Source: a virus | Strand: one strand, 5' to 3' | IMG/VR virus record: IMGVR_UViG_3300046804_003463 | Location: 13,033 to 77,032 of that record | DNA length: 64,000 nt | Shown here: one piece after another, positions 4,499-37,456 of the stretch | Position numbering within the stretch: position 1 is the first letter of the stretch | Layout of the letters: each line of letters opens with the position of its first letter | The notes under the pieces: model-generated | What the model was told of the DNA's origin: nothing | Database searches by the model: none | The model's input: only the letters and a program-made list of their open reading frames with translations | Translations under genes and position numbers: made by a program

Positions 4499-4968
4499 AT
4501 TGATTCCTTACAAACGAGATTGAGAATATCAAAGCGTGTGGTGTGCGGCACATTCAAACTAACGATGTTTGAATTGACTTCATATGAGTTGCGAAAAACT
4601 ACTTTATTATTTGCATCAACATACAAATCCATAAGCATCATGAGTTGTTTTCTACCACAGTGCAATGAACCAAATACATACAATGCACTCACAGGAACAT
4701 CTACGCCATAAAATTCTTGTGGAACATGATATGGCACATATGCGTGAAAACTAACAATTTCTTGTTTAGCGCCGACTGTGCTTTTCTCAATGTATATATC
4801 ATAACCATCGGACTGAGTTACAAAATGCCAGTCGTTTTGATTGTGGATGATTTTATCATCGTTTGTGAAGTTAAGCCGGTATTCCGACTCTTCTGCATTT
4901 ACCGAAAAGGCTAAAAGTGCTGCAATGACAAAAGAAAATAGGTGCTTCATGGGATCCCCCCGAAACAC
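4495..4968 (-). CDS. Secreted/periplasmic hypothetical protein (probable start MKHLF at 4950)
   Basis: Signal peptide ending in VNA-E. Confidence 0.65.
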   Translation of the reverse strand: MFRGDPMKHLFSFVIAALLAFSVNAEESEYRLNFTNDDKIIHNQNDWHFVTQSDGYDIYIEKSTVGAKQEIVSFHAYVPYHVPQEFYGVDVPVSALYVFGSLHCGRKQLMMLMDLYVDANNKVVFRNSYEVNSNIVSLNVPHTTRFDILNLVCKESI

Positions 4969-4984
4969 CTATTTAGAACACAAA

Positions 4985-10221: not shown

Positions 10222-10459
10222 TGATGAATGCCTCTAGTTCTTGTTTTGTCTTATTACCTACTAATCTTTTTGTTGCCATGTTATCTTCCATCATCACCAA
10301 TGTTGGTACACCACGAATACCAAATTCTGCTGCTATTTCTGGTTGTGCGTCAATGTCAATTACTTCAATTGGCACATTTGTTTGTACATCTTCTAGTGTC
10401 TTTGCTAACATCTTACATGGACCACACCATGATGCTGTAAATCTAACGACCTTTTTCAT
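10214..10459 (-). CDS. Thioredoxin
   Basis: WCGPC motif. Confidence 0.95.
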   Translation of the reverse strand: MKKVVRFTASWCGPCKMLAKTLEDVQTNVPIEVIDIDAQPEIAAEFGIRGVPTLVMMEDNMATKRLVGNKTKQELEAFIND

Positions 10460-10593
10460 TTGCCTTGACCTCTATATTTTTTATGTGAACGCTTTTCATG
10501 TTTATTCATTGATGCTGTTTTCTTTTGACCGCCTTGTTTTGTGCGTTTGTGTACTGTTTTGTGTTTGTTCACGTTAGGTGCTTTAACTGACAT
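10456..10593 (-). CDS. Small, highly basic protein ending KKYRGQGK (45 aa)
   Basis: Manually read ORF with SD AGGAG. Confidence 0.7.
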   Translation of the reverse strand: MSVKAPNVNKHKTVHKRTKQGGQKKTASMNKHEKRSHKKYRGQGK

Positions 10594-10601
10594 AATTTCT
10601 C

Positions 10602-11234
10602 CTATTCATACATTACTGTTTCAGTGTCACCCAAAGACCATTTGGGATTTTGTTCTACAACATACTTCTTGGTACAAACTTTAAAATCTGGAAACTTTAG
10701 TTCTTTTGGATTACTTGCTGCGTCTAAAAACAAACAACGATTATTTGGCTGTGCTGCATACTGACCGTTGTATAATTCAATGAAATTGAAACTCTTATGA
10801 TCTTCTGGCCATTCAGCATAACTTGTATCTATAATATTTAAATCTGGTGCCGAATGGTCTACAGTAAACAAATAGTTGCCTTCGTAGAACTGTTTGTCTT
10901 TGGCATAAAACTTGCATGTAAGATTACGCACAAATGCTTTTTGTATCACAGTGAAATCATAACTGAAACAATCCCAAATTTGCAATGTGTCTAAAGGTAA
11001 AAAAGTTTTTGGGAGATTATCCGTTCTGCTAACAAAAGCATGTAATGGTAGTTTATCGTAAAGTGCGCCATAGTTTGGTAAATATGCCTCTATTCTGAAT
11101 GCTTGACTTCTGATGCTTTTGATTGTAACCCAGATACATGGCTCATACTCACCATGACCTTTCTCAAAATCATACAGAAACTCCTTGCGTATGTAACAAT
11201 GTACAGGTGGCAGATTTGCTACTAAATGTGCCAT
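10602..11234 (-). CDS. Conserved phage hypothetical protein
   Basis: 210-aa ORF; NLPP...IRKEFLYD...WDCFS...GQYAAQPNNR pattern recalled from aquatic phages. Confidence 0.75.
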   Translation of the reverse strand: MAHLVANLPPVHCYIRKEFLYDFEKGHGEYEPCIWVTIKSIRSQAFRIEAYLPNYGALYDKLPLHAFVSRTDNLPKTFLPLDTLQIWDCFSYDFTVIQKAFVRNLTCKFYAKDKQFYEGNYLFTVDHSAPDLNIIDTSYAEWPEDHKSFNFIELYNGQYAAQPNNRCLFLDAASNPKELKFPDFKVCTKKYVVEQNPKWSLGDTETVMYE

Positions 11235-11476
11235 TTTTTCTCATGTAAATGAAATTTCATGCCAACATATGTTCCTGCAAATGCACCAAGAACTGCTGGT
11301 ATGATCATCATGTTGTCGTTTGTGTAGTTGATGATTGCTACACCACCTAAAAATGTAATTGCTGATGCCCAAATACTTGATGCCATTGGTCTATCGTTTT
11401 GTACTGATTTAAGTAACTGTGTATAAACAATGTCTGTAACAAACATACAAACAAATGTAAAAATATATGCCCACAT
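11222..11476 (-). CDS. Small multi-pass membrane protein
   Basis: Three hydrophobic segments. Confidence 0.65.
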   Translation of the reverse strand: MWAYIFTFVCMFVTDIVYTQLLKSVQNDRPMASSIWASAITFLGGVAIINYTNDNMMIIPAVLGAFAGTYVGMKFHLHEKKWHI

Positions 11477-11604
11477 TATTTTTTCTCTTCGACTTTCTTT
11501 TCTACTGGTGGTGGCTCAGGTGGCCAGATTTGTTCTTTGATATAATTGGCTCCGAACCAGCCCCATGCTGAAAAGAAACCCCACATCATAATTTCAAGTA
11601 TCAT
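11476..11604 (-). CDS. Small membrane-anchored protein (42 aa)
   Basis: Manually read ORF MILEIMMWGFFSAWGWFGANYIKEQIWPPEPPPVEKK... Confidence 0.5.
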   Translation of the reverse strand: MILEIMMWGFFSAWGWFGANYIKEQIWPPEPPPVEKKVEEKK

Positions 11605-11605
11605 G

Positions 11606-12247
11606 TTACTTCTCCAATAATCTATTCACAAACTCTCTCAAAAGTTTATGATGTCTCCCTTGATGCCAATGTTTATGTAGATATGGTTTACTGTACCAAT
11701 ACTCTTCTGCTTCTAAGTGTGGACCAATTAGTCCTATTTTGTTTTGTATGACTGCTGCTGGATCACCGTTGCTGTATCTGGCAATTGTTTCGAACTTTGA
11801 TTCATCTCCGATAAATGCAGGTCCATCGTAAAAGAAGAACCTGTCTGTATTGCCTTGCCAGTCACATTCAACTGCTTTGGAATAATATCGTTTAGTACAG
11901 GTATTTGGTCGTCGTATGTATTGTTTGGCTTCAATGCCATCCACAATGTCCAAAAAATTGTGGTCAGCCCAATAAGCACCCATGCAAATACCGAGAAATC
12001 TACCACCATTCTTAATGTATTGTCTGACACCAGATTCATGATATTTAAACATATGGTCATAGGTGTCAGCATCGCCAATGCCACCAGGAAAGCAAACAAT
12101 ATCCACATCGTTAAAGTAGTCGTCTTCAATTTCATGTTTGGTAAAAAGTTTGTAGTTATAGTTAGCACCTAGTGCTTTGATTACACCATTACATGATTGT
12201 ACAGAACACCTTGGGTGCTGTACAAAAAGAGCAATTGTACAACTCAT
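11606..12247 (-). CDS. Class I glutamine amidotransferase-like (BPL_N-type) protein
   Basis: FPGG, FLGICMGAY (nucleophile Cys) and GPHLE motifs. Confidence 0.8.
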   Translation of the reverse strand: MSCTIALFVQHPRCSVQSCNGVIKALGANYNYKLFTKHEIEDDYFNDVDIVCFPGGIGDADTYDHMFKYHESGVRQYIKNGGRFLGICMGAYWADHNFLDIVDGIEAKQYIRRPNTCTKRYYSKAVECDWQGNTDRFFFYDGPAFIGDESKFETIARYSNGDPAAVIQNKIGLIGPHLEAEEYWYSKPYLHKHWHQGRHHKLLREFVNRLLEK

Positions 12248-20778: not shown

Positions 20779-22269
20779 TTATGTTTTCTGCATATCGCTA
20801 GACAATTCGGGGTCTTTTTGAAACTTGTCCGATGCCTCTTCTTGTTCTTGCTTTTTTCCTTTTGCAGCATCTCTTACGATTTGTGCTTTACGGGATAGAG
20901 TTCTTGCTGCTGCACTTGGCTCGTCAACGGCTTCACTTACAGTCTTCCAGCCACCCCCCTTTGACTTGTACCACTTTGATGCCCAACCGTTGGCATATGC
21001 AGAAGGATACACATCAAACTTTTGTTTTGCTAGTGCTTTTGCTTTAGACCACAATGCAGGATTGGTCGGAGCATTCTTCTCTTCAAGATACTCAATCTCT
21101 TCGTTGACATGACCATACTTCTTTTTGTACCAATCAGGCATGCCATTCTTTTTTCTCCAATGTCTTACAGTCGCAGAATCATTTGCTTGGTCACGATACT
21201 TGTTTTCTGCTGTTGTGTTATGACTCTTCATTGCTTCTGCTGCTTCATGTGCATCTTTGGCAATGTGAACTAACGCTTCATTAGATTTCTTATGATACTC
21301 ATGACCTTCTAGTGGATGACGCTGTGATGGACGGCCTTCTGTCAGTTCAACTTCTTCTTTGTTGTATTTCTTTTTCAAATACTTGTCAACCTTGCGTTCA
21401 TATTCACCTTTTGGTTTCTTTGCAACAGGAGTACCATGTGGAGAAGGAACATATCGCTTAACTTCTTCTTTCATACCCTTAGGCTTGATACCTTTTTTCT
21501 TCATGTTGATAGCAATTGCTGCCTGTTGTGCAGGATTTGCTGCTTCGCTCAATTCACCACGCAGATAGTTTGCCGCTGTAGAAATATAATCTTCAGCCAA
21601 TGTAATCTTTGATTGTACCCATTCAGGAAGATTTGTGTTATCATCCATCATGTCAATCAAATCTTGTGCATTGAACATTAACGAACGAAGTTGTGACATT
21701 GCCATATCGCCTTCGTAATCGTATTCACGTGGGTCTTTTGCTTCTTTCATATGTTCCTCGTTTACTCTAGGTGATGCTTGAGTGAAAGATTGAAATGGTT
21801 TTTTTGAAGGTCCAGAAACATGTCTGCCTTTTTTGAACAATTCATATGAAATTCTTCCAGTTTGAATTTGTTCATTCACTTCTGTCTCTTCAGAAACTCT
21901 TGATGCTTTCATGATACCACGAATCAATGGTGCTTTGAGTTGTTTATGTCTTGGCACAGAAATGTTTTCTTTTGACTTAGGATGGCCGTATACATCATGA
22001 CCACCAGAAGTTCTCTTCAGTGACCAACCAGATTTTTTCAGATGAGCATGTACATCACGTGTCTTCATGCTTGACTCTGGCATCTCATCAAGTTGTTCAA
22101 CTGATTCAACTTTATATTTCTTTTTGATTTCGGCCTGCTTTGCAAGTCTTTCTCTGTCATCAGAAATGCTGTAAGAATGACCTAGTTCTTTGTAATAGTC
22201 GGGATGTGGTAGTCCCGACTTCTTACGCAGAGCCATTTGTCGTTGATGTAGTTTATCGGCGACTGACAT
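20779..22269 (-). CDS. Modular internal-head-type polyprotein with a HicA-like domain
   Basis: Modules separated by (L/V)xE acidic linkers; aa ~63-124 are HicA-like. Confidence 0.7.
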   Translation of the reverse strand: MSVADKLHQRQMALRKKSGLPHPDYYKELGHSYSISDDRERLAKQAEIKKKYKVESVEQLDEMPESSMKTRDVHAHLKKSGWSLKRTSGGHDVYGHPKSKENISVPRHKQLKAPLIRGIMKASRVSEETEVNEQIQTGRISYELFKKGRHVSGPSKKPFQSFTQASPRVNEEHMKEAKDPREYDYEGDMAMSQLRSLMFNAQDLIDMMDDNTNLPEWVQSKITLAEDYISTAANYLRGELSEAANPAQQAAIAINMKKKGIKPKGMKEEVKRYVPSPHGTPVAKKPKGEYERKVDKYLKKKYNKEEVELTEGRPSQRHPLEGHEYHKKSNEALVHIAKDAHEAAEAMKSHNTTAENKYRDQANDSATVRHWRKKNGMPDWYKKKYGHVNEEIEYLEEKNAPTNPALWSKAKALAKQKFDVYPSAYANGWASKWYKSKGGGWKTVSEAVDEPSAAARTLSRKAQIVRDAAKGKKQEQEEASDKFQKDPELSSDMQKT

Positions 22270-24894: not shown

Positions 24895-25593
24895 CAGTGC
24901 TTTATTAATACGTGAATCTGGATCACGTGCTGTCTTTGCTGATGTCAGTCTACGCTTCATGCCGCCCATTCTTGCACAGAATGATTTGCGACGATTTGCT
25001 GCTTTAGAACCAGGTTTCAGTTTGCTTGGCTTTGTTGTCACAGCCATTGACAGTTTTGAACCTGGATTCTCACGACGATATGATTCAATACCTTTACGAT
25101 TCAAACCACCAGACTCAGACTTACCTTCTTTACGCTGCCATGCTGCAACTTCTTCTAACTGTTCTAATTGTTCATCTGTCAGCGGACCATCGTCTGCTTC
25201 ATAGTTCTCTTTTTTCACTTTCATCATCTTTGGCTTTGTGAACACAGGATTATCCGCACCACCAGCATCACCTTCTCTCTCCTCTACAAATTTTTTCAGC
25301 TTTTTATAATAATCTGATTTTTCACCGATATGCTTCAATGCAATTTTTCTAGCAACATGTTTTTCATCAGTATGTTCCATTTCAACTTTAGTGCCATGTG
25401 CTACCAAATCTTGAATATCTGAAATAGACATTTTATATTTTTTTGCTAAATCATCTTCAGAAGGAACTGATTTATCAAGTTCAACTTCTTCTTTTACACA
25501 TGAGCCTGGTGAATATGGTTTTTTACCAGGTACTGGTCTATGACCTGGCCAACAACGACCAGCTTCATCTAAGAATGCGCTAAACGATTTCAT
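24877..25593 (-). CDS. Modular internal-head-type protein (CTS-like MKSFSAFLDE; DUF5661-like and DUF6321-like modules)
   Basis: GTKVEMEH...DYY module and AWQRKEGK...SFCARM...WNC module, separated by LEE/ELD linkers; DUF names from memory. Confidence 0.7.
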   Translation of the reverse strand: MKSFSAFLDEAGRCWPGHRPVPGKKPYSPGSCVKEEVELDKSVPSEDDLAKKYKMSISDIQDLVAHGTKVEMEHTDEKHVARKIALKHIGEKSDYYKKLKKFVEEREGDAGGADNPVFTKPKMMKVKKENYEADDGPLTDEQLEQLEEVAAWQRKEGKSESGGLNRKGIESYRRENPGSKLSMAVTTKPSKLKPGSKAANRRKSFCARMGGMKRRLTSAKTARDPDSRINKALRKWNC

Positions 25594-28115
25594 ATGTAAT
25601 TTCTCTTTTTAAATGTTGTAAGTGAGATACCTTTTTTCTTCAGTTCGTCTTCTTTTTGATCACCAATTGATGCTGTAGTCGTGTCGCCTGTAAGTTCATT
25701 GATATTTTTAGGCACAACTTGTGTTGCTTTACCTTTTTTGCTTAATTTTTCACCCATGTCTCTAGCAGGAGATTCACCAGCACCCGCCATTGAAATGCCT
25801 GGCTCTATACCTTTGTCTATTGACTCTTGAATTTTTTTCTGCCAATTTTCTTTGATGGTTGAGATGGTGATGGTTCTTCTATCTTCACTTCTTCCTTCGG
25901 CAACGGGCTTGTCAAGGGCTGGTCGTTCTTTTCTTCCAACACTGGCTCTAACTTTTCCAAGTTCTTTGGCTGTTGGGGTGAAACTATTTTGTCCATAAAC
26001 TGCTTCAATCGCAGAATTATCAGGTGAATGTACTTCATACAAATCCTCTTTTAGTTTTACAACATATCTCTTGCCTACTTTTGCTACTGTGCCACCTTTT
26101 TGGTGTGCTTCTTTTGCTGCTGAACCACGAATAAAAAACAATCGTGTCTTGCCATTCTTGTCTGTCAATAGTTTTTGTTTCTTCGTTTCTTCACTAATCT
26201 TGCCTTTGCCAAAATTTGATACATTGATTGGATCACCTTTACGTTCTGGGTTAGGATCGTGTTTTCTTTTTGCACGAACAGCAGCAGCACGTTCTTTCTT
26301 TGACAACGCTGCACGTTTTTCATTTGACATGCATTTTGGTTTTGGTTCACCTGGCTCTCTTGCACAAGGACCAATTGCTTCACCCTTACTATTGATGCGT
26401 TTCCAACCACCTTCGGGATCAGTTTTGCTGAACCATTTACGCAGGTCTTCTTTAATCATGCCTCTTCCTAGTGTAAGTAGATTAAATGCACCAGGATCAG
26501 ACATCGTATTCACTTCCTCTTCTTCTACCATGTCTTCTTCATCTGACTTGAGCAAACGAAGTGTGCGTGTGACTTCTTCTACAGTATCTCCTGTTACTGA
26601 TACTGTGACTGCTTCATTCATCTTAGCCATTTTGCTTTGATGTGTTTCAACAGTCTTTGCAATCTTTTCTACTGGCACTAGACTACCATGCACTGAACGA
26701 TGTGTGACTTTACCATCTTTACCATAACGACCAAAGCCATAATACTCAAGACCCATTGTGTTCATATCATCATGTGTGCCGGCATCTTTATGTGGTTTCG
26801 TGTCGGTACGAATTGGTGCTGTATCTTTTTTACCTAACTCTGTAGCAATCCAACCTTTTGCTGAATCATTCTTTGGTGGTTTACCAACAAACTTTTGTAT
26901 GTTCTTGAAAATGCCGTCTAGTTCTTTTGTCTTTGCTTCTACAACTTCTGGTGGTGCAGAACGCAAATCTTCTGAGTTATCAAACTCAACATAATTGTCA
27001 CGGAATAGTTTACCAAACATTGGTCGTGCCGCTTGTACAGAATCCCATTTTTCTTTACGAATGTCTTCTGGTACTGTACGACCACCACGTTGACCACGTT
27101 CAATATTTCTCTCTTTTGATACTTCGTCGGCTGTGTTGACCATAATCATGGATGTTTCATATCCTAACTTCTCAAGCATGTCTTTGATTTTGGCATACTT
27201 TTCTGGGTCATCACCTGTACCATTGATGATAAGACCATTACGACCATGAAGTGCAAGACGTTGACGCAACTCTGTAACATTCTTTGCACGTTTGCGAACT
27301 GCATTTCTTTGCGCTTCTTCATTGTCTGGCATTTTCTTATCAAGACCTTCTTTGTCCATCAGATACTCAAGTGCTTTGTCTGAATTGATTTCAGTCAGAC
27401 CATGACCATCAAGTGTCTTACTCAACACATAATCTTTACCTGAGCCAGGACCACCACCAAGAAACACTGCTTTGAAAATACCTTTGTCGTGAACACCTTC
27501 ACGAATGATTTCTTCGTGCAATCTCATACCTTTACGTACATCATTGAACATTTGTTTGACATGTGCATGAGACATTGATGATGGTGCGCCCTTCTTGAAT
27601 GAATCAAGGTCACCACTCTTTGCATGTTCACGCATCTTTGAAGCAGAAATGCCAGTTACACCTTCAGCATCAGGATCACGTTCACCCGCTGAGTGTACTT
27701 TGATTGATTTGAAATTGAAACGGGCACCTTCATGTGTGCCATTATACTTGTGAAGCAATCTGTGATATTCTTCTGTACGATCAGAGCCACCAACCATGTG
27801 TAGATGAGTTACACCTTTCTTATGCAATGCTTCTGCATGGTCAAAGAATGTTGGCTTGTCTTTAGATGCTGCTGTGAAGTTCGTGCCAGGAAATGCACGT
27901 TTAGCATGTTTGACTTTTTGATCTGCTGTAAGGGGATTTTTCTTAGAGTCCTGTGAATGTGACAAGACGATGTGATGAGAACCGCCGACAGAATCGGCAA
28001 TATCTTTGACTTTGTTGACTAGTTTTTCGTGACCGTTTGTGATAGGATTCATGCGACCAAATGCTAGGACGGCATGTTTCTCTTTCTGTTCACGTAGAAA
28101 ATCTCTAAATTTCAT
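25590..28115 (-). CDS. Modular protein: CTS-like N-terminus, HIGH-superfamily nucleotidyltransferase, P-loop kinase (zeta/AAA_33-like), further modules
   Basis: MKFRDFLRE; FGRMNPITNGH, VGGSDR, ISASKMR; GGPGSGK; DLRKWF...KPKC module. Confidence 0.8.
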   Translation of the reverse strand: MKFRDFLREQKEKHAVLAFGRMNPITNGHEKLVNKVKDIADSVGGSHHIVLSHSQDSKKNPLTADQKVKHAKRAFPGTNFTAASKDKPTFFDHAEALHKKGVTHLHMVGGSDRTEEYHRLLHKYNGTHEGARFNFKSIKVHSAGERDPDAEGVTGISASKMREHAKSGDLDSFKKGAPSSMSHAHVKQMFNDVRKGMRLHEEIIREGVHDKGIFKAVFLGGGPGSGKDYVLSKTLDGHGLTEINSDKALEYLMDKEGLDKKMPDNEEAQRNAVRKRAKNVTELRQRLALHGRNGLIINGTGDDPEKYAKIKDMLEKLGYETSMIMVNTADEVSKERNIERGQRGGRTVPEDIRKEKWDSVQAARPMFGKLFRDNYVEFDNSEDLRSAPPEVVEAKTKELDGIFKNIQKFVGKPPKNDSAKGWIATELGKKDTAPIRTDTKPHKDAGTHDDMNTMGLEYYGFGRYGKDGKVTHRSVHGSLVPVEKIAKTVETHQSKMAKMNEAVTVSVTGDTVEEVTRTLRLLKSDEEDMVEEEEVNTMSDPGAFNLLTLGRGMIKEDLRKWFSKTDPEGGWKRINSKGEAIGPCAREPGEPKPKCMSNEKRAALSKKERAAAVRAKRKHDPNPERKGDPINVSNFGKGKISEETKKQKLLTDKNGKTRLFFIRGSAAKEAHQKGGTVAKVGKRYVVKLKEDLYEVHSPDNSAIEAVYGQNSFTPTAKELGKVRASVGRKERPALDKPVAEGRSEDRRTITISTIKENWQKKIQESIDKGIEPGISMAGAGESPARDMGEKLSKKGKATQVVPKNINELTGDTTTASIGDQKEDELKKKGISLTTFKKRNYI

Positions 28116-28146
28116 ATCCCCCTACCTCTGCGGCAGTTGTTTACAT

Positions 28147-28161
28147 TATTTAGTATTTAGT
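28147..28161 (-). promoter_or_regulatory. Tandem T4-late-type promoter candidates (ACTAAATA x2)
   Basis: Directly upstream of the CTS-bearing gene run. Confidence 0.55.
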
Positions 28162-28864
28162 AGATTTCCGTTGCTCCTGTGCTGGCCATGACACCTTGAC
28201 AGTGTATTTTATCTAGTTCCACAAGACGGTCAGGTTCAATGTTGAAGAAATGTGCATGTTCTGTGTCAACACCGGCATCTTGAACTACACCAATGTTTCT
28301 TCTACAGACGATAGAGTAATCATCAATAAGACTTGGGCAAAATGAGAATAAACGAGTAATCAACAAATCAGTAAATGTTTCTGCAACTTCACCTCTCATC
28401 CAAGTTGGCATTCTTTTCTTAAACACATACCTACCAAAGTGGTCATGCTCTGCTATGTCAAATTCATCATGAAGTATGGTTCTTGCAGAAAACTTGTACA
28501 CTCTACGAACAGAATGCATCAGACGTTTCATCTCAGGTGCTTGTTTCAGAAGCATCATCATTTTTAGCATCAACACATTTTCTGCTTCACTTTTGCGGGC
28601 AACAGCAGCAAACTGTGCTATGTCTTTATCACCAGAAAAGTCAGCAATCAAATCAACAAGACCACTCATGCTGTCATACTTTTCTTTTTCTACTGCCTCT
28701 GGTGAACCATCTGCTAAAATAACAATCGCATCAGGACATTTCTTTCTGAGTGATACAAGACCTTCAATCGTTTGTTGTAATCTATCTTCACGACTGAGTA
28801 CACCCATGTTTGGATTAAGAGCAGATGTTACAATGAATAGCTGAAGTGAAGGAATCAATGACAT
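28157..28864 (-). CDS. Putative glycosyltransferase-like (GT-A) protein
   Basis: VTSA...RLQQT...ILADGS...KFSAR pattern; last gene of the sugar/cyclitol cluster. Confidence 0.5.
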   Translation of the reverse strand: MSLIPSLQLFIVTSALNPNMGVLSREDRLQQTIEGLVSLRKKCPDAIVILADGSPEAVEKEKYDSMSGLVDLIADFSGDKDIAQFAAVARKSEAENVLMLKMMMLLKQAPEMKRLMHSVRRVYKFSARTILHDEFDIAEHDHFGRYVFKKRMPTWMRGEVAETFTDLLITRLFSFCPSLIDDYSIVCRRNIGVVQDAGVDTEHAHFFNIEPDRLVELDKIHCQGVMASTGATEIY

Positions 28865-29529
28865 TCGTACTCCGAAAATAATTTAATTGTTTTATATGTC
28901 GCTTTTGATTTCAATACATGAAGAATCGTGTCAGTAATTTCTTTTGTATCTAACAACTTGTCTTTATTCGGATGACCATCTTGCATCGGTGTATTAATGC
29001 CACCAGGATGAATACTTGTCACACGAATTTCATCCATTTGTGTATAAATCTCTTTACCAAGAACATCAGCAAAAGCAGTAATAGCGTGTTTAGACGCTGA
29101 ATAAACTGCTTCCCATTCCAGTGGCATAAGACCTGATACAGAATTGATGAAGAAAATATCACTATGTTTATTCATCCACTTGTATGCTTCTTTTGTTACA
29201 TACATCGTGCCTTTGACATTCAAATCAATGATTCTGTCTATTGACTCAAATGAAAAATCATCTCTGAATAAACCCCATTGATATACGCCAGCATTGTTTA
29301 CAAGAACATCAATGTGTGTACCAATTCTTTTGAATGCTTCTTCAACTTGTTTTGATTTCGTGATGTCACATTCTATCCATTGAAATGTGTCGGGAAAGGC
29401 AAAAAGGTTGATAGATGGCTTTGTGCGTGAAAGACCATATACAAAGTAACCTTCATCAATCAGTCTGTCTGCTATATCATAACCAAGACCATAACTACAA
29501 CCTGTCACCACAGCCACTTTACGCATCAT
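28855..29529 (-). CDS. Short-chain dehydrogenase/reductase
   Basis: TGCSYGLG, NNAG, YSASK and PGG motifs. Confidence 0.92.
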   Translation of the reverse strand: MMRKVAVVTGCSYGLGYDIADRLIDEGYFVYGLSRTKPSINLFAFPDTFQWIECDITKSKQVEEAFKRIGTHIDVLVNNAGVYQWGLFRDDFSFESIDRIIDLNVKGTMYVTKEAYKWMNKHSDIFFINSVSGLMPLEWEAVYSASKHAITAFADVLGKEIYTQMDEIRVTSIHPGGINTPMQDGHPNKDKLLDTKEITDTILHVLKSKATYKTIKLFSEYECH

Positions 29530-30662
29530 ATCTCCTCAAAAACATCAATCGCTAATTTCATTTCATCTTCTGTAATGTCATTTACAATCTTATAGTTGCC
29601 AATAGCAATAGGTAATGGCGCATACTGATTACCATTACGATGCTTTGTTGCATCACGTAGGCTCTCTAACAATAACTTCATGTTGGTAAAGTCTTTGTGA
29701 AATGTTTTGAGTTTTAGTCTCTTTGCGACACCAAATATTCGTTTGAGTTGAACAGTATCAATGTAGCCACGAATGAATGAAATACATGAACTGTATAAAC
29801 AATCCAATGCTACTGCTTCACCATGTAGCAATTCAGGTATATTAGTCATTTCAATGACAGGACTGAATGTGTGTCCAAAATCTACACACCGATCTAATCG
29901 TTTTTCCCACAGATTAGGTCCAAGTTCTGCAATCATGTCTGTGATAGCAAGATTGATGACACGAACTGGTACGGCACCATACTGAAACTTTTCATCAATC
30001 AGTATTTCTGCATTCTCTTCTAGTAGATGAAAGAGTTCTGGTGATTTGATGACAGCAAGTTTGAATATCTCTGCAATGCCATTGATGATTTCTCGTTCAC
30101 TCTGTGTACGAATAAATTTCTTGTCAATGTATGTCGCAAGTGGTGGGTAGTACGCACCAATACGATTGCGTCTGCCTAGATGATTGACACCAACTTTAGA
30201 ACCTACAGAAGCGTCAACGATGGCAAGAAGTGTTGTGGGAATTTTAACGTATGGAATTCCACGGCGGTATATGCTACAAGCAAAGCCAACAATATCCAGC
30301 AGAACACCTCCGCCAATAGCGATAATCGGTTCACGGCGTAACACTCCATTCTGTTCAAAAAAGTCTAAGATACGATCTACATTCTTCCAGTTTTTATTTT
30401 CTTCTTTGCAGTCTACACAAAGTATTTTGCAACTCAACTTGACCGCACCAAAGTATGTTGCAATGTTATCTTTGTACAAATCATGTACTTCAGAATCAAT
30501 AACAATGATTCTGCGATCACTATTCGTAATGTTTACAATGTCTTGATTACTTGGGCTGAAGATGTCAGCAGAGTATGTAAGTTTGAATTCTACTGGTAGT
30601 TCTGTTTTGACTGACCAAGTTCGTTTGAACTTGTCATAATCCATCATAAAGTCTAAACTCAT
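29526..30662 (-). CDS. Sedoheptulose-7-phosphate cyclase, 2-epi-5-epi-valiolone synthase (EEVS)-like
   Basis: DHQS fold (GGGVLLD, PTTLLAIVDASVG) with MIAELGPNLWE..LDRCVDFGHTFSP and KHRNG, unlike AroB (LNxGHTxGH). Confidence 0.85.
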   Translation of the reverse strand: MSLDFMMDYDKFKRTWSVKTELPVEFKLTYSADIFSPSNQDIVNITNSDRRIIVIDSEVHDLYKDNIATYFGAVKLSCKILCVDCKEENKNWKNVDRILDFFEQNGVLRREPIIAIGGGVLLDIVGFACSIYRRGIPYVKIPTTLLAIVDASVGSKVGVNHLGRRNRIGAYYPPLATYIDKKFIRTQSEREIINGIAEIFKLAVIKSPELFHLLEENAEILIDEKFQYGAVPVRVINLAITDMIAELGPNLWEKRLDRCVDFGHTFSPVIEMTNIPELLHGEAVALDCLYSSCISFIRGYIDTVQLKRIFGVAKRLKLKTFHKDFTNMKLLLESLRDATKHRNGNQYAPLPIAIGNYKIVNDITEDEMKLAIDVFEEI

Positions 30663-31612
30663 TTCATCGCCTTACTAAACAATTTACATGCATGAACATA
30701 AAAATATTTTGCTTTGTCAATATCACCTGCCAGCAATTTGAAGGGCAGCATACGAATGAACTGTGATGCTTCAAGTATATCTATGAGTTTCATTTTATCT
30801 TCTGGTAACTCAGAGATGAAGTGTTTGTTGAATGTATCAAAGTTATTCGTGTCATCGTTTGGATTAGATAAATTAATTCCTTTCACATGAACATTGTGGT
30901 CATTGATAAGACCATAATAACTGCGTGAACACTGAAGCACTTGTGCGTAGTCAAGGTATTTGGTATTCCACATACTCTCTTCATACACATCAATGAAAAC
31001 TACACGGTCTTCTTCAAATGAGTACATGATATTCTCAAGTGTTGGATTACCATGTATATTACACTCATCATCGTTCTTTAATTCGGAAAAGTATTCTTTC
31101 AGAACATGAAGATAACCACCCACACCTGTAACAACTTCACCATTGAAATGATATGTGCCATAATAAAAGAAATCTTCAAACTCTTTTATCTTGATAGCAT
31201 CTTCAATTTTCTGTTGTATTTCTTCAATAAAATAAAGTTTTGGTGCGCCAGCAATAGGTTCTTTTCTGATTGAGTGAAGTGTATTCAGTCCTTTCCAGAC
31301 TGCTTGACTTATTTTGAAGATTTGTTCTTCACTTAGTATGTCTTTGCTAAGAATGCTTTTGATGTCATGAAAGCCCTCTAGATATTCTAAATCAAACCAT
31401 GCTTCAACGCTAGTAGAATCAACATTTACAACTTTGGGAAATAGATTAGGATATAGTGTATTGTATTGCTGTAGTTTCATTAACTGAGAATACCAACGCA
31501 TGAAACCATATTCACGATTTCCTACACGTGAAATTTCCTTGCGTACAATTTTCTCATCTGGTAACCAATAAGTTCTACTTAATGAGCCACCCTTCAATGA
31601 TATAGTTTTCAT
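30659..31612 (-). CDS. Aminoglycoside-phosphotransferase/choline-kinase-like protein
   Basis: LKGGSLS loop, HGNPTLENI (HGD-like) and FID motifs. Confidence 0.7.
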   Translation of the reverse strand: MKTISLKGGSLSRTYWLPDEKIVRKEISRVGNREYGFMRWYSQLMKLQQYNTLYPNLFPKVVNVDSTSVEAWFDLEYLEGFHDIKSILSKDILSEEQIFKISQAVWKGLNTLHSIRKEPIAGAPKLYFIEEIQQKIEDAIKIKEFEDFFYYGTYHFNGEVVTGVGGYLHVLKEYFSELKNDDECNIHGNPTLENIMYSFEEDRVVFIDVYEESMWNTKYLDYAQVLQCSRSYYGLINDHNVHVKGINLSNPNDDTNNFDTFNKHFISELPEDKMKLIDILEASQFIRMLPFKLLAGDIDKAKYFYVHACKLFSKAMK

Positions 31613-32340
31613 TTTGCACCTAGTGTTTGCCTTGCTATCTCAATGCCGTATTCTTGTGGACTACCTAGCACAATTGTCTCTTGACTACCACCAAGAGGAT
31701 TCATGAATACTTGTTTATTGGATTGTATCATACTTTGTATCACATCTGCAATATACAATTCACCATCTTTTTCGGCTAACTTGTTGTAATATTCTAAGTA
31801 AAGGTGTCCAGTTAGAAAACCATAGAAGCCTGATGACGCATACGGTGAGATTTGTTTCTTTTCTACGATTTCAATTACCGTGTTTTCATATGCACGAACA
31901 TAAGAATACTTTGGTGAATTACCCACGAACACATCAATGTACGCATCATGCTTTGCGGTCAAGTCATCAGCAATAAAATCTATACGACGACCTTTGATGA
32001 TCGTATCTGCGTTATGTACAAATGTTGGTAAATGTTTGTTGTTTAGTTGTTCAATACCAATTGCCGCTGTGTGTGCTTGACCTTTTGTATCACCAATATA
32101 CAAAATATTGCTGTCGTTCCAACCTAGTGGCTTGATTGCTTCAACAAGTTGTTCTTTGAAATAGATGTCTCTTTTGTTGGCGACAAGAATAAGTTGATTG
32201 ACCCAACCAATGTTTTTCAAAATGTCATATATGATTGTCTTATCATTCCAAGGCAAAAGATATTTTGGTATGTCAAAGCCGACATCATGAAAACGGGTGT
32301 TATAACCCGCCATACAGATTATCAGATTCATTTCAGCCAT
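31609..32340 (-). CDS. Sugar-phosphate nucleotidyltransferase-like protein
   Basis: ICMAGYNTRF...PKYLL, TKGQAHT, NAD, EKK, GELYI and LGSP motifs. Confidence 0.82.
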   Translation of the reverse strand: MAEMNLIICMAGYNTRFHDVGFDIPKYLLPWNDKTIIYDILKNIGWVNQLILVANKRDIYFKEQLVEAIKPLGWNDSNILYIGDTKGQAHTAAIGIEQLNNKHLPTFVHNADTIIKGRRIDFIADDLTAKHDAYIDVFVGNSPKYSYVRAYENTVIEIVEKKQISPYASSGFYGFLTGHLYLEYYNKLAEKDGELYIADVIQSMIQSNKQVFMNPLGGSQETIVLGSPQEYGIEIARQTLGAK

Positions 32341-33041
32341 TCTTCCATATCATTTCGTAGCAGTGAATGCCATGTGCTGTTGTACTCACCTGGTGAAAAC
32401 GGATGATTGACATCACAATACACAAGATTCTCACCAACAAGATTGTTTCTCTTCCAGTTGGCACTCATAAAATCTTCCATCATGTATTGTACACCAGAAT
32501 TGTAGAACTCATCAATGTGATTGTAAGCATCAGCATACTTGTCCATGTTTTCGGATGATGAGAACGCAAACTGATCGTTGCCAAAGTCACGTTCTGGTGT
32601 CATGCGACAGTTTGGTATATACAACTTACTGTTGTCTAGTTCTTCAAATGGTATGCGAACATTAATAGCAAAGTCAAATCGTGAACGAATGACCCAATCA
32701 AACTTTGTTTCAAAGTATTTTTCATACTCATACTTTGTTTTCATACACTCTCTGATTGCATACAACTGAGCATATGTTGACATGCGACCATCTTTAACTT
32801 TCCAGTTTGGTGATGGTGGTGGAGTATTCGTGTACTTTGACAAATCAACTGTGGGATTTGGTGATGTCTTAAAGCTGTATGCATTGTATGTTGAAGAAAT
32901 CTTTTGCATTTGTTCAGCAGGCATTTCCCAAGAATGCAGAAATACAGTAACATCATTACCTTTGATGATGTTCTCGTAATGATATGCATAGCCTTTTTCC
33001 CACATTCTTGGTTGGCCAGAAATACATAGTGCTATTCTCAT
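32328..33041 (-). CDS. Putative glycosyltransferase-like protein
   Basis: MRIALCISGQPR...FLHSW...DWVIRSRFD...NDQFA pattern recalled from phage sugar loci. Confidence 0.6.
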   Translation of the reverse strand: MRIALCISGQPRMWEKGYAYHYENIIKGNDVTVFLHSWEMPAEQMQKISSTYNAYSFKTSPNPTVDLSKYTNTPPPSPNWKVKDGRMSTYAQLYAIRECMKTKYEYEKYFETKFDWVIRSRFDFAINVRIPFEELDNSKLYIPNCRMTPERDFGNDQFAFSSSENMDKYADAYNHIDEFYNSGVQYMMEDFMSANWKRNNLVGENLVYCDVNHPFSPGEYNSTWHSLLRNDMEEWLK

Positions 33042-33718
33042 AGTTCTCTTCCTACATTTGCTTTGTTGTCTGTGATGCCAAATGGCTTTAGTTGTTCCTT
33101 TTCCATCACAACCATACTATTGTAAAATGAAACAGAATACAGATTGTGATATACATCTAATGCTTCTTGTGAAATTGGTGAACCTTGAAAGTGTTGCTGA
33201 TTGACAATATCAGTTGCTCGTTTACAATGTTCTGTGAATGTACCAGCACCACGAAACACACCACCCCATGGCTGTGGCCAATAACTTGTGTGAGTGTCTT
33301 CACAAATGTAAACACCACCTTCTTTGATATGTGGAAAAACTTTATTGAGTGTGGTGATTTGATGATTCATTACATGTGAACCATCGTCAATTACAATGTC
33401 AAACTTGTCTTGTGTTTTGAGAAATTCATCCCAAAACTCTGGATCACTTTGGTCACCCATCACAATATTGACATCACCATCATACTCATACTTCAAACAT
33501 TCTTCATTGATGTCAATAGCAACAACTGATGTATCAGAACCAAAGTATTTCAACCACATCTCAATTGAGCCACCACCCAACACACCAATTTCAAGTATGC
33601 GTGGTGCTTTGTGAGTAAATTTACTCAGATGTCTTTCATATACATCAAAATAACCTGACCATTTGGTAGAACCTTTTTCAAGTTCCCAAAATAATTCTTT
33701 GATTCTATTTGTCGTCAT
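33038..33718 (-). CDS. Class I SAM-dependent methyltransferase
   Basis: LEIGVLGGGS, GDQS, DIVIDDGSH and GGVYICED motifs. Confidence 0.88.
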   Translation of the reverse strand: MTTNRIKELFWELEKGSTKWSGYFDVYERHLSKFTHKAPRILEIGVLGGGSIEMWLKYFGSDTSVVAIDINEECLKYEYDGDVNIVMGDQSDPEFWDEFLKTQDKFDIVIDDGSHVMNHQITTLNKVFPHIKEGGVYICEDTHTSYWPQPWGGVFRGAGTFTEHCKRATDIVNQQHFQGSPISQEALDVYHNLYSVSFYNSMVVMEKEQLKPFGITDNKANVGREL

Positions 33719-34547
33719 ATTTCGCCTCAATCACTTTACGCCATTCTGGCACACGATCATACTGATGTACAATAGTATACTCTATTCCTGTTGAAGTTAC
33801 AACCTTGTCACCTTCTAGTTTCGGTGATGGTTCTAATAGATGTGGTCTAAACTGTTCAATCTTACTTGGATCAGCAGTTGTACCTAATTGACATGCCCAA
33901 CCTTCTTCTGATTTCATGTACATTGATGTTTTCACATATGGATGTCTAGAAACCATCACATTGAATACCGCTTGATCAACAATTGGTATTGGGCGATTGA
34001 TACAGTTCAAAAATAATTGCAATGTTAAATCTCTCATTGCATGTCCACGGCCGGCAAGAACACCTACATTGAAAATTGTATTGTTCTTGAAATCATCATA
34101 GATGCCTTGACCATAACATTGTGTAATATTTTCACGACCCCATGGCTCATCTTTATATTTCATACTTTCAGAAGAAAACACTAAGTCTTCTTGTGCAGAA
34201 AGATTCTCTTCTAACCATGTAACAGGATTTTTTTGAAAGATAACATCTCGTACATCAGTGGTAATCACATAACGATAGTCGTTGCTTTTGAGCAGTTTGT
34301 AAATATGAACAAATCGTTCAACATGCACCATCAGTTGTGATTGATAAGTTAGATTACCTTCACCGTCTTGATTGAATGCAATGATTGAGAAACCTGCTTC
34401 AGTTACCTTTTTTACGGTATCTTTGTCGCAGTTCATGAGAATCAGAACTTTGTCACCCTCAAAGCCTGATTGATTGATTGAATTAATCCAATACTTTAGT
34501 TTTGCCCAATCATAATTTGTTGAGCAACCCACGATCAAATCCTTCAT
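33705..34547 (-). CDS. Putative glycosyltransferase (GT-A, DxD)
   Basis: TDVRDVIFQ, NVGV, DQAVFN and HQYDR motifs. Confidence 0.75.
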   Translation of the reverse strand: MKDLIVGCSTNYDWAKLKYWINSINQSGFEGDKVLILMNCDKDTVKKVTEAGFSIIAFNQDGEGNLTYQSQLMVHVERFVHIYKLLKSNDYRYVITTDVRDVIFQKNPVTWLEENLSAQEDLVFSSESMKYKDEPWGRENITQCYGQGIYDDFKNNTIFNVGVLAGRGHAMRDLTLQLFLNCINRPIPIVDQAVFNVMVSRHPYVKTSMYMKSEEGWACQLGTTADPSKIEQFRPHLLEPSPKLEGDKVVTSTGIEYTIVHQYDRVPEWRKVIEAKYDDK

Positions 34548-34562
34548 AATATCTCCAATAAT

Positions 34563-34748
34563 TTATTTTATGTCTGTTGTTGCCCAGTTCGTTGTGTATT
34601 TTTTGTATTGTTGTTGACTCTGACCAGGCGTGTCATCAAGATATTTAGCAGTGAGTTCTGGTCTGCCCCACTCACCACCACCTGCTTTAGACACAAACTC
34701 TTGTCTGCTATCTTTATTTGCCTTGAGATAATCTTTGAATGTTTTCAT
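34563..34748 (-). CDS. Small protein with CTS-like N-terminus (MKTFKDYLK)
   Basis: GEWG...Y..DTPGQ motif. Confidence 0.6.
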
Positions 34749-35068
34749 ATCGTGAATGAAGAACCGCAACCACAAGTAGCAGTTACGTTTGGATTTTTGA
34801 TTGTAAATGAAGCGCCCATCAAATCTTCTTTATAATCAATCTCGGCTTCATTCATATATTGTAAACTTATAGTATCTATGACAACGCCAACACCATCTCT
34901 TTCGAATGTCATATCATCTTCATTTGGTGGGTATTCTTCTAACGTAAACCCATATTGAAAACCCGAACACCCACCACCTTGTACAAACACACGAAGTTTC
35001 AATGAAGGATCTTCTTCAGCAATAATTGTCTTGATTTTTCTCACAGCAGAATCAGATATAGTTATCAT
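34745..35068 (-). CDS. erpA: A-type Fe-S cluster carrier (ErpA/IscA/HesB)
   Basis: GGGCSGFQY and TCGCGSSF motifs. Confidence 0.92.
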
Positions 35069-35200: not shown

Positions 35201-35473
35201 TTATCCTCTTGTGAGTGTCAGTATTTTTTGCATTTGTTTCTCAATGATAGGACCACGATTAGGCCAATGAATGTATGGCTGACTTGCGGTCTTGTATAGA
35301 TTCGTCAGAAATGGCATGATAATCTTTTCCACTTGTTGAAGTCTTGCTTTATACTCTTCAACGGTTTCATCTTTCTCAGCAATGACTGCTTGGTACTCAA
35401 CTTCATCTACTGTGCTGAAGCCAAAATCATCATCTGCATACTCTGCTAAAATTTTATTGATATCGTATTCCAT
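35201..35473 (-). CDS. Conserved phage hypothetical protein
   Basis: DFGFS...PFLTNL...YIHWPNR pattern. Confidence 0.7.
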   Translation of the reverse strand: MEYDINKILAEYADDDFGFSTVDEVEYQAVIAEKDETVEEYKARLQQVEKIIMPFLTNLYKTASQPYIHWPNRGPIIEKQMQKILTLTRG

Positions 35474-36696
35474 TACTTGTCCCATGCTTTCTGTGCGTTA
35501 AAGTTTTGTCTGCTGAACTCTAGTCTGTCTACTAGTTTCAATGCTTTACCAACATGATCTACAGCAACAAAACCCTCTGGTGCTGTGATACGAAAACCAT
35601 CATCAGTGCGAACAAATGTACCAATGCTCTTGATAGTTTCCAACTTACGAATAATCATCAACTTGGCATCAACAATCAAATTCATCAAGTCAAATATTGA
35701 TTTTAGTTGAATGGCATTTGAACGATAGAAACGCATCACTTCATTCTTTTCTTTGATACGTTTTTGTTTTGTATCTTCTTTCTTTGCTGCAAGAATTTCT
35801 TTGTTCAATTTTGCTTCAACATAATTCATCAATTCTTGTGTATGAATTCTTGTGTCTGCAATCTTTTTACCTTCACGAACTTTTGTATTGTTGAATGTTT
35901 TGATTTGTGTAAGAAAAACATCCGATGCAGCAATACGATTCAATGTCAATGCGGGTATTGAATTGAAAACTCTGCCTGCATTTGAAAGAATAGATGTAAT
36001 TGCTGCCGTTTCTTCTTCAGTAAATGTAACTGAACCTGACGCATCAGTAAACGAAGCATCACGAAACCAAACATCTTTTGTTGGCTTCAAATGTCCAATG
36101 TCAATGTTGTATGATGCTTTCATTGTCTCTAATGTTTTACCAGAGTATGATGTATGAAACACAACACCAATCTGTGCAGCCATCATTGTCTGTGCTAACT
36201 TTGATTTTGTTGGCACAGCATATACGATTGTGTTTGGTTGAAATATAATGTATTCTTCACCATCAATAGTTTCTTTTTTGATGTCGCCCTTACTGAACAT
36301 CATATCACCTTGCAGTACACCTTTGATACCCAATTTAGGTAAGAATGCAAGTGCAAGTTTTAGTTTCTGATTCAGTCCACCACCAGGATGATTTGCATCA
36401 ATATCTTCATCAGTATAATTCAATTTTGCATTTTTTGCAAACACTGATTTAGTGCCAACGAAAAAATTACCGTTCTCTGGATTTGTACCAGCAAAGATAG
36501 CAGGTGCGCCATCCCATTTTGTGGTTACATTTATTTTTGAACCTGTATGACCGGCAAGCATATTACGCAATGAACGAAGAAAATCTATTGCTTCACGTGC
36601 GCCTGATACACCACCGTTTAGTACGTTGTCTTCAAGATGCTCAAGATGAACATTCTTGCCTTCTTTACTTTCTTTGAGATATTCCATGAATTTCAT
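35473..36696 (-). CDS. DUF6267-like protein with ligase-type KxDG motif and CTS-like N-terminus
   Basis: MKFMEYLKE; HLEHLED; TKWDG; QGD; PEGFV; LKLVDR. Confidence 0.7.
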   Translation of the reverse strand: MKFMEYLKESKEGKNVHLEHLEDNVLNGGVSGAREAIDFLRSLRNMLAGHTGSKINVTTKWDGAPAIFAGTNPENGNFFVGTKSVFAKNAKLNYTDEDIDANHPGGGLNQKLKLALAFLPKLGIKGVLQGDMMFSKGDIKKETIDGEEYIIFQPNTIVYAVPTKSKLAQTMMAAQIGVVFHTSYSGKTLETMKASYNIDIGHLKPTKDVWFRDASFTDASGSVTFTEEETAAITSILSNAGRVFNSIPALTLNRIAASDVFLTQIKTFNNTKVREGKKIADTRIHTQELMNYVEAKLNKEILAAKKEDTKQKRIKEKNEVMRFYRSNAIQLKSIFDLMNLIVDAKLMIIRKLETIKSIGTFVRTDDGFRITAPEGFVAVDHVGKALKLVDRLEFSRQNFNAQKAWDK

Positions 36697-37448: not shown

Positions 37449-37456
37449 TATTTATA
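37449..37456 (-). promoter_or_regulatory. T4 late promoter consensus TATAAATA
   Basis: Exact match at the end of gp41, upstream of the nuclease and DUF6267-like genes; gp55 is in the window. Confidence 0.65.

Follow-up and report, generated by a model that had tools for sequence, protein, structure and literature searches.

A cassette of eight genes in the DNA of an uncultured freshwater T4-like phage holds a conserved four-gene core that would make a nucleotide-activated C7-cyclitol during infection, and the variable neighbours of this core would build the unit into a glycoconjugate; this reading of the sequence is held with slightly better than even confidence. The cassette lies at positions 28157-34547 of a stretch of 64,000 nucleotides (here called the window) taken from IMG/VR virus record IMGVR_UViG_3300046804_003463. 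C7-cyclitols are familiar as bacterial antibiotics and glycosidase inhibitors, such as acarbose and validamycin, and as sunscreens, such as gadusol and the mycosporines; to our knowledge, they have not been described as building blocks made by viruses. At the centre of the core is a cyclase that, judged by its sequence, is of the EEVS (synthase of 2-epi-5-epi-valiolone) type and is neither a 3-dehydroquinate synthase (DHQS; AroB) nor a desmethyl-4-deoxygadusol synthase (DDGS).

All eight open reading frames (ORFs) are co-directional, on the minus strand, and range from 224 to 378 codons, with overlaps of 4-26 nt at every junction. The gene order given in a preliminary description of this DNA was reproduced by the ORF list together with Pfam and PHROGs scans. 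Every gene is under purifying selection, with pairwise ratios of nonsynonymous to synonymous substitution rates (dN/dS) of 0.02-0.21, the lowest being those of the cyclase (0.02-0.04). The genes, in coding order, are the following:

g1, 33705-34547, minus strand, 280 aa: putative GT-A-type glycosyltransferase, weak assignment (phrog_1579)
g2, 33038-33730, minus strand, 230 aa: class I S-adenosylmethionine (SAM)-dependent methyltransferase, accessory tailoring gene (Methyltransf_24)
g3, 32328-33041, minus strand, 237 aa: DUF7796 (weak match), predicted GT-A glycosyltransferase fold
g4, 31609-32340, minus strand, 243 aa: sugar-1-phosphate-type nucleotidyltransferase, core (NTP_transferase, PF00483)
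g5, 30659-31612, minus strand, 317 aa: protein-kinase-like (APH/NahK-type) predicted small-molecule kinase, catalytic loop atypical, core (fold model)
g6, 29526-30662, minus strand, 378 aa: EEVS-type sedoheptulose-7-phosphate cyclase, core (DHQ_synthase and DHQS_C)
g7, 28855-29529, minus strand, 224 aa: classical short-chain dehydrogenase/reductase (SDR), probable cyclitol ketoreductase, core (adh_short)
g8, 28157-28864, minus strand, 235 aa: conserved protein, no family match

The cyclase and the conserved core

The product of g6 has the two-domain architecture of a DHQS, with matches to PF01761 (E 5.7e-36) and PF24621 (E 5.8e-19), and many of its homologues are labelled '3-dehydroquinate synthase' in their source databases. 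Against the AroB equivalog model TIGR01357 of NCBIfam it scores 215.9 bits, which is below the cut-off of 305. When g6 was compared with all PDB sequences, the validamycin EEVS, ValA (4P53), ranked first (283 bits, E 2.8e-83), followed by the Anabaena DDGS 5TPR (222 bits), DHQSs (142 bits at most) and 2-deoxy-scyllo-inosose synthase (94 bits). In HMMER alignments, the Asp of the g6 motif VDFGH pairs with the Asp of VDFGH in ValA and the Ala of IAYGH in the DDGS; similarly, the His of KHRNG pairs with the His of KHRDG in ValA and the Thr of LTRDG in the DDGS. With the six-residue tag offset of the PDB chain removed, we take these residues to be D281 and H360 of ValA. In the 2014 work of Kean and colleagues, Asp281 and His360 of ValA, as against Ala and Thr in DDGS, are said to tell EEVS from DDGS. 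All phage and bacterial homologues that were examined carry the Asp/His pair, as do 141 of the 156 nearest cluster representatives; in two annotated AroB proteins, Asn and Val occupy these positions. Other residues are also invariant among g6 homologues, namely the candidate metal ligands E198, H264 and H280, together with D150, K156, N166, K201 and R258. The existence of two such discriminating sites, and of a 14-residue fingerprint, has been described (PMC4426668). The motifs quoted for the cyclase in the preliminary description (MIAELGPNLWE, LDRCVDFGHTFSP and KHRNG) are all present in the g6 translation, and its claim that the enzyme resembles EEVS rather than AroB or DDGS is upheld by the ranking of ValA as best PDB relative, the Asp/His pair and the sub-cut-off AroB score. 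The label '3-dehydroquinate synthase' on these phage genes is, in our assessment, wrong.

A FastTree phylogeny of 158 cyclase sequences, rooted on AroB, places the phage enzymes in a single clade (support 99), which a branch with support 100 divides from AroB. Cyclases with the Asp/His pair surround this clade, whose sister is the metagenome protein P0122, at 55% identity. Together with P0122, the phage clade falls inside a group (support 92) that also contains P0124, a fusion of kinase and cyclase, and five of the six bacterial cyclases that were fetched; the sixth, from Streptomyces, is placed in an adjacent clade, and its gene lacks a kinase of the g5 type as neighbour. This phylogeny distances the phage enzymes from AroB and groups them with Asp/His-type cyclases, but it was built without named references for EEVS, EVS (the synthase of 2-epi-valiolone) and DDGS.

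The genes around the cyclase are conserved with it. In 39 IMG/VR contigs that carry close homologues, with cyclases 72-99% identical, the same eight genes occupy the same place, and a profile scan found 154 viral stretches. The block of nucleotidyltransferase, kinase-like gene, cyclase and SDR is intact and in the same order in all 39 close loci and in 26 of the 26 divergent viral loci examined, where cyclase identity falls to 53%. By contrast, g1, g2, g3 and g8 are variable in the 26 divergent loci, being present, absent, moved or duplicated, with other genes inserted. Such a combination of an invariant precursor module and swappable transferases resembles glycan-diversifying loci. For instance, in one viral variant the core is surrounded by GT8, GT2, GT29 and MptE-like genes, and in another, L079, an NDP (nucleoside diphosphate)-sugar 4,6-dehydratase and a DegT-type aminotransferase are added (4483-5610 and 10470-11798). 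This pair would together make an NDP-4-amino-4,6-dideoxyhexose, the type of sugar that is the partner of GDP-valienol in acarbose.

The same four core families are also adjacent in metagenome-assembled genomes (MAGs) of Balneolaceae, Myxococcales and Fibrobacteria. A Holophagaceae MAG has a variant arrangement: after the kinase and cyclase come an aldo-keto reductase in place of the SDR, a 370-aa protein with a marginal nucleotidyltransferase match and a protein with a GT61 domain. The Balneolaceae copy of the core sits inside a long co-directional surface-polysaccharide locus with RmlA-like, UDP-GlcNAc 2-epimerase, ABC transporter, formyltransferase, DegT, HAD-nucleotidyltransferase, GT2, GT1 and FnlA/B/C-like genes. 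In effect, the kinase-like, SDR and nucleotidyltransferase genes, which the preliminary description had grouped with the cyclase, accompany it throughout the viral variants that were examined, and in bacteria as well.

Within the core, sequence identity is uneven in at least one locus: compared with the window, contig L011 has a cyclase that is 97% identical, but a kinase-like protein at only 59% and a nucleotidyltransferase at only 70% (both encoded at 30659-32340 in the window). This contrast suggests a mosaic cassette with allele exchange. In two further loci (L120, 881-2119; L122, 1127-2365), a 412-aa RuBisCO-like protein with a RuBisCO_large catalytic domain (E 2e-43) lies between the nucleotidyltransferase and the kinase-like gene. 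These are short IMG/VR contigs of ambiguous viral or bacterial origin, with cyclases 53-54% identical.

Two of the other core genes belong to well-defined families. The product of g4 matches NTP_transferase (PF00483, E 1.7e-11), with weak RmlA/GlmU-type matches in NCBIfam, and its nearest solved relative is the NDP-sugar pyrophosphorylase 4EVW (E 6e-18); such a gene adjoins the cyclase in each viral variant examined and in four bacterial MAG loci. That of g7 matches adh_short (E 1.5e-40), and a TGxxxGxG-like motif, NNAG and an intact YxxxK can be read in its sequence; the reduction of valienone 7-phosphate by AcbN provides a precedent for the step proposed for g7 (PMC9200736).

The kinase-like protein g5 has no Pfam match, and a profile search of the PDB reached kinases at E ~0.4 only. 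In its AlphaFold2 (AF2) model (pLDDT 87), a bilobal kinase fold is predicted, and Foldseek relates the model to APH(2''), N-acetylhexosamine 1-kinase (NahK), methylthioribose kinase and fructosamine-3-kinase, with probability 1.00, E ~1e-7 and TM scores of 0.5-0.6. The motifs LKGGSLS, HGNxTLEN and FIDxYEE are invariant across phage and bacterial homologues. Judged by this model, g5 is probably a kinase, of an atypical kind. The preliminary description's kinase-like assignment is therefore retained as regards the fold, but the protein is not of the ROK type, shows no recognised kinship with AcbM or ValC and has an atypical loop. Since two of its fold relatives make sugar 1-phosphates, the type of substrate used by nucleotidyltransferases, the fold would suit a nucleotidyltransferase partner. 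A g5-type kinase is fused to a cyclase in P0124, and the fusion of ROK sugar kinases to many other related cyclases is an analogous pairing; these fusions suggest that phosphorylation of the cyclitol is a step coupled to cyclisation. Among cellular EEVS-type cyclases, such proteins with an N-terminal ROK domain measure ~720-760 aa (representatives P0130, P0136, P0141 and P0134), and one carries an AMP-binding adenylation domain.

Variable neighbours and genomic setting

Among the putative transferases, g3 is the best defined. Its AF2 model (pLDDT 84) was matched by Foldseek to retaining GT6 transferases in the PDB (ABO GTA/GTB and BoGT6a; E ~1e-6, TM ~0.5) and, in BFVD, to giant-virus and cyanophage proteins labelled DUF7796 or 'glycosyltransferase' (TM 0.7-0.77); a profile search of the PDB returned nothing. 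On this model, g3 is a GT-A-fold transferase, in agreement with the glycosyltransferase-like character first proposed for the third gene. The residues D115, R121 and D123 are invariant in the motif FDWVIRSRFDF, which is not a plain DxD, and metal-independent GT6 enzymes exist. In the Balneolaceae MAG, the gene immediately upstream of the core encodes a homologue of g3 (E 2.9e-13).

For g1, first described as a GT-A enzyme, a weak match to a PHROG annotated 'glycosyltransferase' (phrog_1579, E 4.7e-6) points the same way, but sequence and profile searches gave no Pfam or PDB match. An additional lead from the Atlas is a viral cluster in which 10% of the members carry PF03407 (Nucleotid_trans). 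The gene is kept in most T4-like variants, at a dN/dS of 0.05-0.10. The last gene, g8, had also been called glycosyltransferase-like, a label that was not confirmed: there is no match in Pfam, NCBIfam or PHROG, and PDB matches are at chance level only. A Pfam scan of 17 members of its family likewise gave only chance matches, and longer fused forms proved to be two unnamed proteins. Distant Atlas clusters offer leads to WavE (18% of members) and DUF7796 (20%). The gene is conserved (dN/dS 0.09-0.16) and is present, at times duplicated, in T4-like variants; L090 and L092 have two diverged copies, at 9781-10494 and 11253-11984. Profile comparisons among g1, g3 and g8 revealed no relation.

The methyltransferase g2 is identified by Methyltransf_24 (29.1 bits, cut-off 26.3), by phrog_21658 (methyltransferase, E 2e-23) and by a weak match to RMNT/CmcI sugar O-methyltransferases. 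Several variants lack it, L023, L029, L079 and L083 among them, or have it at the opposite end of the cassette, and this type of methyltransferase does not belong to the bacterial core.

The window is of phage origin, as it encodes a T4-type DNA polymerase (phrog_262) with 52-53% identity to those of Synechococcus myophages and, on the same strand, UvsX, DnaB and a virion protein. The source record is a 77-kb IMG/VR virus contig, ~45% complete, and its relatives include a complete genome of 172 kb with terminal repeats. Metagenomes from 11 studies, most of them of freshwater, contain nearly identical DNA. Contigs of two metatranscriptome libraries match parts of the cassette at 90-99% identity; such contigs cannot reveal transcription or strand.

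The proteins that flank the cassette (35473-36696 and 25590-28115) match separate parts of a single PHROG, phrog_455 (764 aa). One, a DUF6267 protein of 407 aa, corresponds to profile positions 17-341, and the N-terminal cytidylyltransferase-like part of the other, of 841 aa, corresponds to positions 421-629. Because both match phrog_455, they would be a single protein or direct neighbours in other phages, and the cassette would occupy a slot between them. Upstream of g1 are an IscA-like Fe-S assembly protein (34745-35068; PF01521, E 2.6e-21) and a small ORF of ~61 aa (34563-34749), whose start, MKTFKDYLK, resembles the N-termini of the 841-aa (MKFRDFLRE) and 407-aa proteins. Farther away, at 20779-22269, an ORF of 496 aa contains a HicA toxin-like domain at residues 71-122 (PF07927, E 9.5e-10).

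Scans for sigma-70 promoters and terminators gave results at chance level. The window has a single exact copy of the T4 late motif TATAAATA (37449-37456), fewer than the 3.5 expected by chance, and it does not precede the cassette; most of the 70 nt upstream of g1 is taken up by the end of the small ORF and a ribosome-binding site, where no cassette-specific promoter is callable. Two tandem copies of CTAAATA, a variant of the T4 late promoter, are found at 28141-28157 on the minus strand, just past the g8 stop; the start of the 841-aa gene follows ~25 nt later. This gene probably has its own late promoter and does not belong to the cassette.

Proposed pathway and competing explanations

Each step of the proposed pathway is drawn from homology and gene linkage. 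The cyclase g6 would convert sedoheptulose 7-phosphate, an intermediate of the pentose-phosphate pathway, into 2-epi-5-epi-valiolone, and the SDR g7 would reduce the ring ketone. The resulting cyclitol would be phosphorylated by g5, and g4 would combine the cyclitol phosphate with a nucleoside triphosphate to give an NDP-cyclitol. The products of g3, g1 and g8 and the methyltransferase g2 may then decorate or use this donor, alongside ordinary sugars, to form a glycoconjugate. An SDR-type reduction, a 1-kinase, a nucleotidyltransferase and GDP-valienol have all been described for acarbose biosynthesis (PMC9200736). The cassette would have come from bacteria with the same core, which at least once lies within a surface-polysaccharide locus. 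No genes for lipid-carrier initiation or export were found in the phage, and its near-complete relatives are devoid of a Bac_transf initiating phosphoglycosyl transferase and of a Wzx flippase. For this reason, the likeliest acceptor would be either a glycan of the host envelope that the host's own machinery assembles or a virion protein. A broader proposal, somewhat short of even odds and hence tentative, is that freshwater T4-like phages and core-bearing bacteria build an NDP-activated C7-cyclitol into a glycoconjugate of the envelope or virion, through a pseudo-glycosidic, non-hydrolysable link or a phosphodiester.

Several observations weigh against this pathway. The call of EEVS over EVS or DDGS rests on bit scores and the two fingerprint residues, given the tree's lack of named references. 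The canonical catalytic loop of APH, NahK and methylthioribose kinases is HxDxxxxN, which contains the catalytic Asp and is accompanied by a Mg-binding Asp. In the g5 loop HGNxTLEN, an invariant Asn, Asn189 in g5, stands at the usual place of the catalytic Asp (an equivalence by motif), the downstream Asp of FIDxYEE being kept, and g5 may do something other than phosphorylation. As DUF7796-type proteins are widespread in viruses without the cyclase, g3 may use ordinary NDP-sugars. The core copies of Myxococcales and Fibrobacteria have no recognisable glycan context among the few neighbours scanned. Furthermore, no C2-epimerase or dehydratase family was recognised in the eight products by Pfam and NCBIfam searches (g1 and g8 being unassigned), and the cassette has no GT5, GT20 or Glycos_transf_1 match, so no pseudoglycosyltransferase of the AcbS or VldE/ValL GT-B type was recognised. 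The ring may thus stay saturated, and a saturated carbocycle cannot stabilise the oxocarbenium-like transition state of glycosyl transfer, which makes direct 'pseudoglycosyl' transfer by a GT-A enzyme chemically doubtful. The NDP-activated carbasugar of the preliminary description is compatible with the conservation of the core, which fits an NDP-C7-cyclitol, but the GT-B pseudoglycosyltransferase, C2-epimerase and dehydratase of a route through an unsaturated, valienol-type donor were not recognised.

The poor suitability of a saturated ring for glycosyl transfer makes transfer as cyclitol phosphate a serious, if unlikely, alternative, in which the NDP-cyclitol would be used in the manner of CDP-ribitol, CDP-glycerol or CDP-inositol and would end in a phosphodiester link to a glycan or lipid. 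A reductase next to a small enzyme of the NTP_transferase family follows the logic of TarJ and TarI, such a transfer is feasible for a saturated cyclitol, and the failure to recognise an allylic-activating dehydratase or a GT-B pseudoglycosyltransferase agrees with it; the family-less g8 could even be the transferase. Nevertheless, none of the LicD, TagF, Stealth and CDP-alcohol phosphatidyltransferase families was detected in the eight genes, and the GT-A fold predicted for g3 is closest to retaining glycosyltransferases. Another serious, though quite unlikely, alternative is that the end product is a soluble small molecule, whether a signal, a compatible solute or a glycosidase inhibitor of the pseudo-oligosaccharide type, acting on host or competitor enzymes, with the NDP-cyclitol only an intermediate. 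The absence of an exporter from the phage cassette and the polysaccharide-locus context in Balneolaceae speak against it, as do the variable sets of several glycosyltransferases, which look like glycan assembly. Even so, all characterised EEVS pathways yield small molecules, namely acarbose, validamycin, kirkamide and gadusol (PMC12904256, PMC9200736), the dehydratase and DegT-type aminotransferase of L079 are the ingredients of the amino-dideoxyhexose partner in acarviosine, and the near-complete relatives lack the initiating transferase and flippase mentioned above.

A hypermodification of phage DNA with the activated cyclitol, protecting it from restriction like the glucosyl-hydroxymethylcytosine of T4, is brought to mind by the T4-like nature of the phage and by the proximity of the cassette to DnaB, UvsX and DNA polymerase. 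It is very unlikely, as no gene of the thymidylate-synthase family (dCMP/dUMP hydroxymethylase) was found in the record, which has only ThyX, nor in the complete 172-kb relative or four other large relatives. In addition, no T4 alpha- or beta-glucosyltransferase family was detected, and the same core is found in bacterial polysaccharide and other loci. DNA, named as a possible acceptor in the preliminary description, is accordingly an unlikely one, and the other option of that description, a gadusol-like sunscreen or antioxidant, has also lost ground. Gadusol formation requires EEVS, methyltransferase and oxidoreductase activities (PMC4426668), and the cassette does contain a methyltransferase and an SDR that might oxidise and methylate the cyclase product into a gadusol- or mycosporine-like compound. 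The dispensability of the methyltransferase, which is absent or relocated in several variants and lies outside the bacterial core, makes this highly improbable; moreover, the kinase and nucleotidyltransferase, unneeded for gadusol, are always present, the Ala/Thr fingerprint of DDGS is not found, and neither is an ATP-grasp or nonribosomal peptide synthetase-like gene. The relatives also lack psbA and so give no sign of a phototrophic host. The DDGS route towards mycosporines was rejected as a candidate in its own right, on 222 bits for DDGS against 283 for ValA and on Asp/His instead of Ala/Thr. As for an ordinary DHQS serving aromatic amino-acid synthesis, the names of many homologues and the matching Pfam DHQ_synthase domains suggest it, and its probability is practically negligible: g6 scores below the AroB equivalog cut-off and twice as high with ValA as with any DHQS, AroB differs at both fingerprint sites and is split off by a fully supported branch, and no other shikimate genes are nearby.

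Novelty and comparison with known systems

A search of 50,697 deposited phage records turned up no EEVS-like gene, and the cassette itself had no match when it was compared with deposited phages by a distant DNA search. The literature searched contains no paper that links EEVS or cyclitols with phages, in line with the earlier remark that no characterised phage pathway of this kind is known. If the proposed incorporation of an NDP-activated C7-cyclitol into a glycoconjugate is true, it would be the first example both of a structural glycan that contains a carbasugar and of a cyclitol pathway in a virus, with a new family of cyclitol kinases that have an Asn-type loop. It would extend the auxiliary metabolism of phages to carbasugar chemistry, by a compact route shared between an abundant lineage of lake phages and bacterial glycan loci, and would hint at glycans that no glycosidase, phage depolymerases included, is able to cleave. 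Moreover, it would provide a minimal and easily expressed route, with a new kinase type, for the synthesis of activated pseudosugars.

In the acarbose and validamycin pathways, the known set of enzymes comprises the EEVSs AcbC and ValA, the kinases AcbM and ValC, the reductase AcbN, the 1-kinase AcbU, the nucleotidyltransferases AcbR and ValB, and the pseudoglycosyltransferases AcbS and VldE. The phage core resembles the GDP-valienol branch in the linkage of a reductase, a kinase and an enzyme of the NTP_transferase family to an EEVS-type cyclase, with a predicted course from sedoheptulose 7-phosphate through cyclitol and cyclitol phosphate to NDP-cyclitol. It differs in being viral and limited to four genes, in having a protein-kinase-like enzyme with an Asn-type loop rather than a ROK kinase, and in that no epimerase, dehydratase, phosphatase or GT-B pseudoglycosyltransferase is recognised in the cassette. 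Its neighbours are GT-A-type or family-less, in a glycan-like context, in contrast to the actinomycete antibiotic cluster.

A second parallel is with the NDP-heptose pathways (GmhA, HldE/HddA kinase, GmhB and HldE/HddC nucleotidyltransferase), which serve lipopolysaccharide, capsule and S-layer glycans. These also start from sedoheptulose 7-phosphate, use a kinase and a nucleotidyltransferase to obtain an NDP-activated C7 unit and are found in surface-glycan loci; indeed, a HAD-nucleotidyltransferase fusion adjoins the core in the Balneolaceae MAG. In the phage, however, the first enzyme is a cyclase that removes phosphate and closes the ring, and not an isomerase, so that the product would be a carbasugar without a ring oxygen. 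The CDP-ribitol and CDP-glycerol systems of teichoic acids and capsules (TarJ/TarI and TagD) similarly employ a reductase and a small nucleotidyltransferase to activate a polyol for envelope polymers. By contrast, the polyol to be activated in the phage would be a C7 carbocycle that a cyclase makes de novo, and a kinase would be needed because this cyclase removes the phosphate; the cassette showed no transferase of the TagF or LicD type.

The vertebrate gadusol pathway, which consists of EEVS and a bifunctional methyltransferase-oxidoreductase (MT-Ox) (PMC4426668), shares the two fingerprint residues and the presence of SAM methyltransferase and oxidoreductase genes nearby. In the phage, these two are separate genes rather than a fused MT-Ox, the methyltransferase is dispensable, and the kinase and nucleotidyltransferase are obligatory. 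Another compact and mobile operon with a cyclase is the ebo cluster, in which EboD accompanies a UbiA prenyltransferase (PMC5133447). The likeness lies in a sedoheptulose-7-phosphate-cyclase-like enzyme within a compact operon; by contrast, EboD forms a separate clade nearer to DDGS and EVS, and the prenyltransferase, TatD-like and xylose-isomerase-like partners are absent from the phage cassette.

Finally, hypervariable combinations of glycosyltransferase-like and sugar-nucleotide genes are also a feature of the glycan or lipopolysaccharide islands of T4-like cyanophages (such as P-SSM2 and S-SKS1) and of the glycosyltransferase sets of giant viruses. The fold family of g3 occurs in S-SKS1, S-PRM1, chloroviruses and relatives of mimivirus. 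We know of no report of a sugar-phosphate cyclase in such islands. In general, the families of the phage enzymes are known and their predicted logic would parallel that of GDP-valienol and NDP-heptose; what appears to be new is the viral setting, the four-gene form, the type of kinase and the glycan context.

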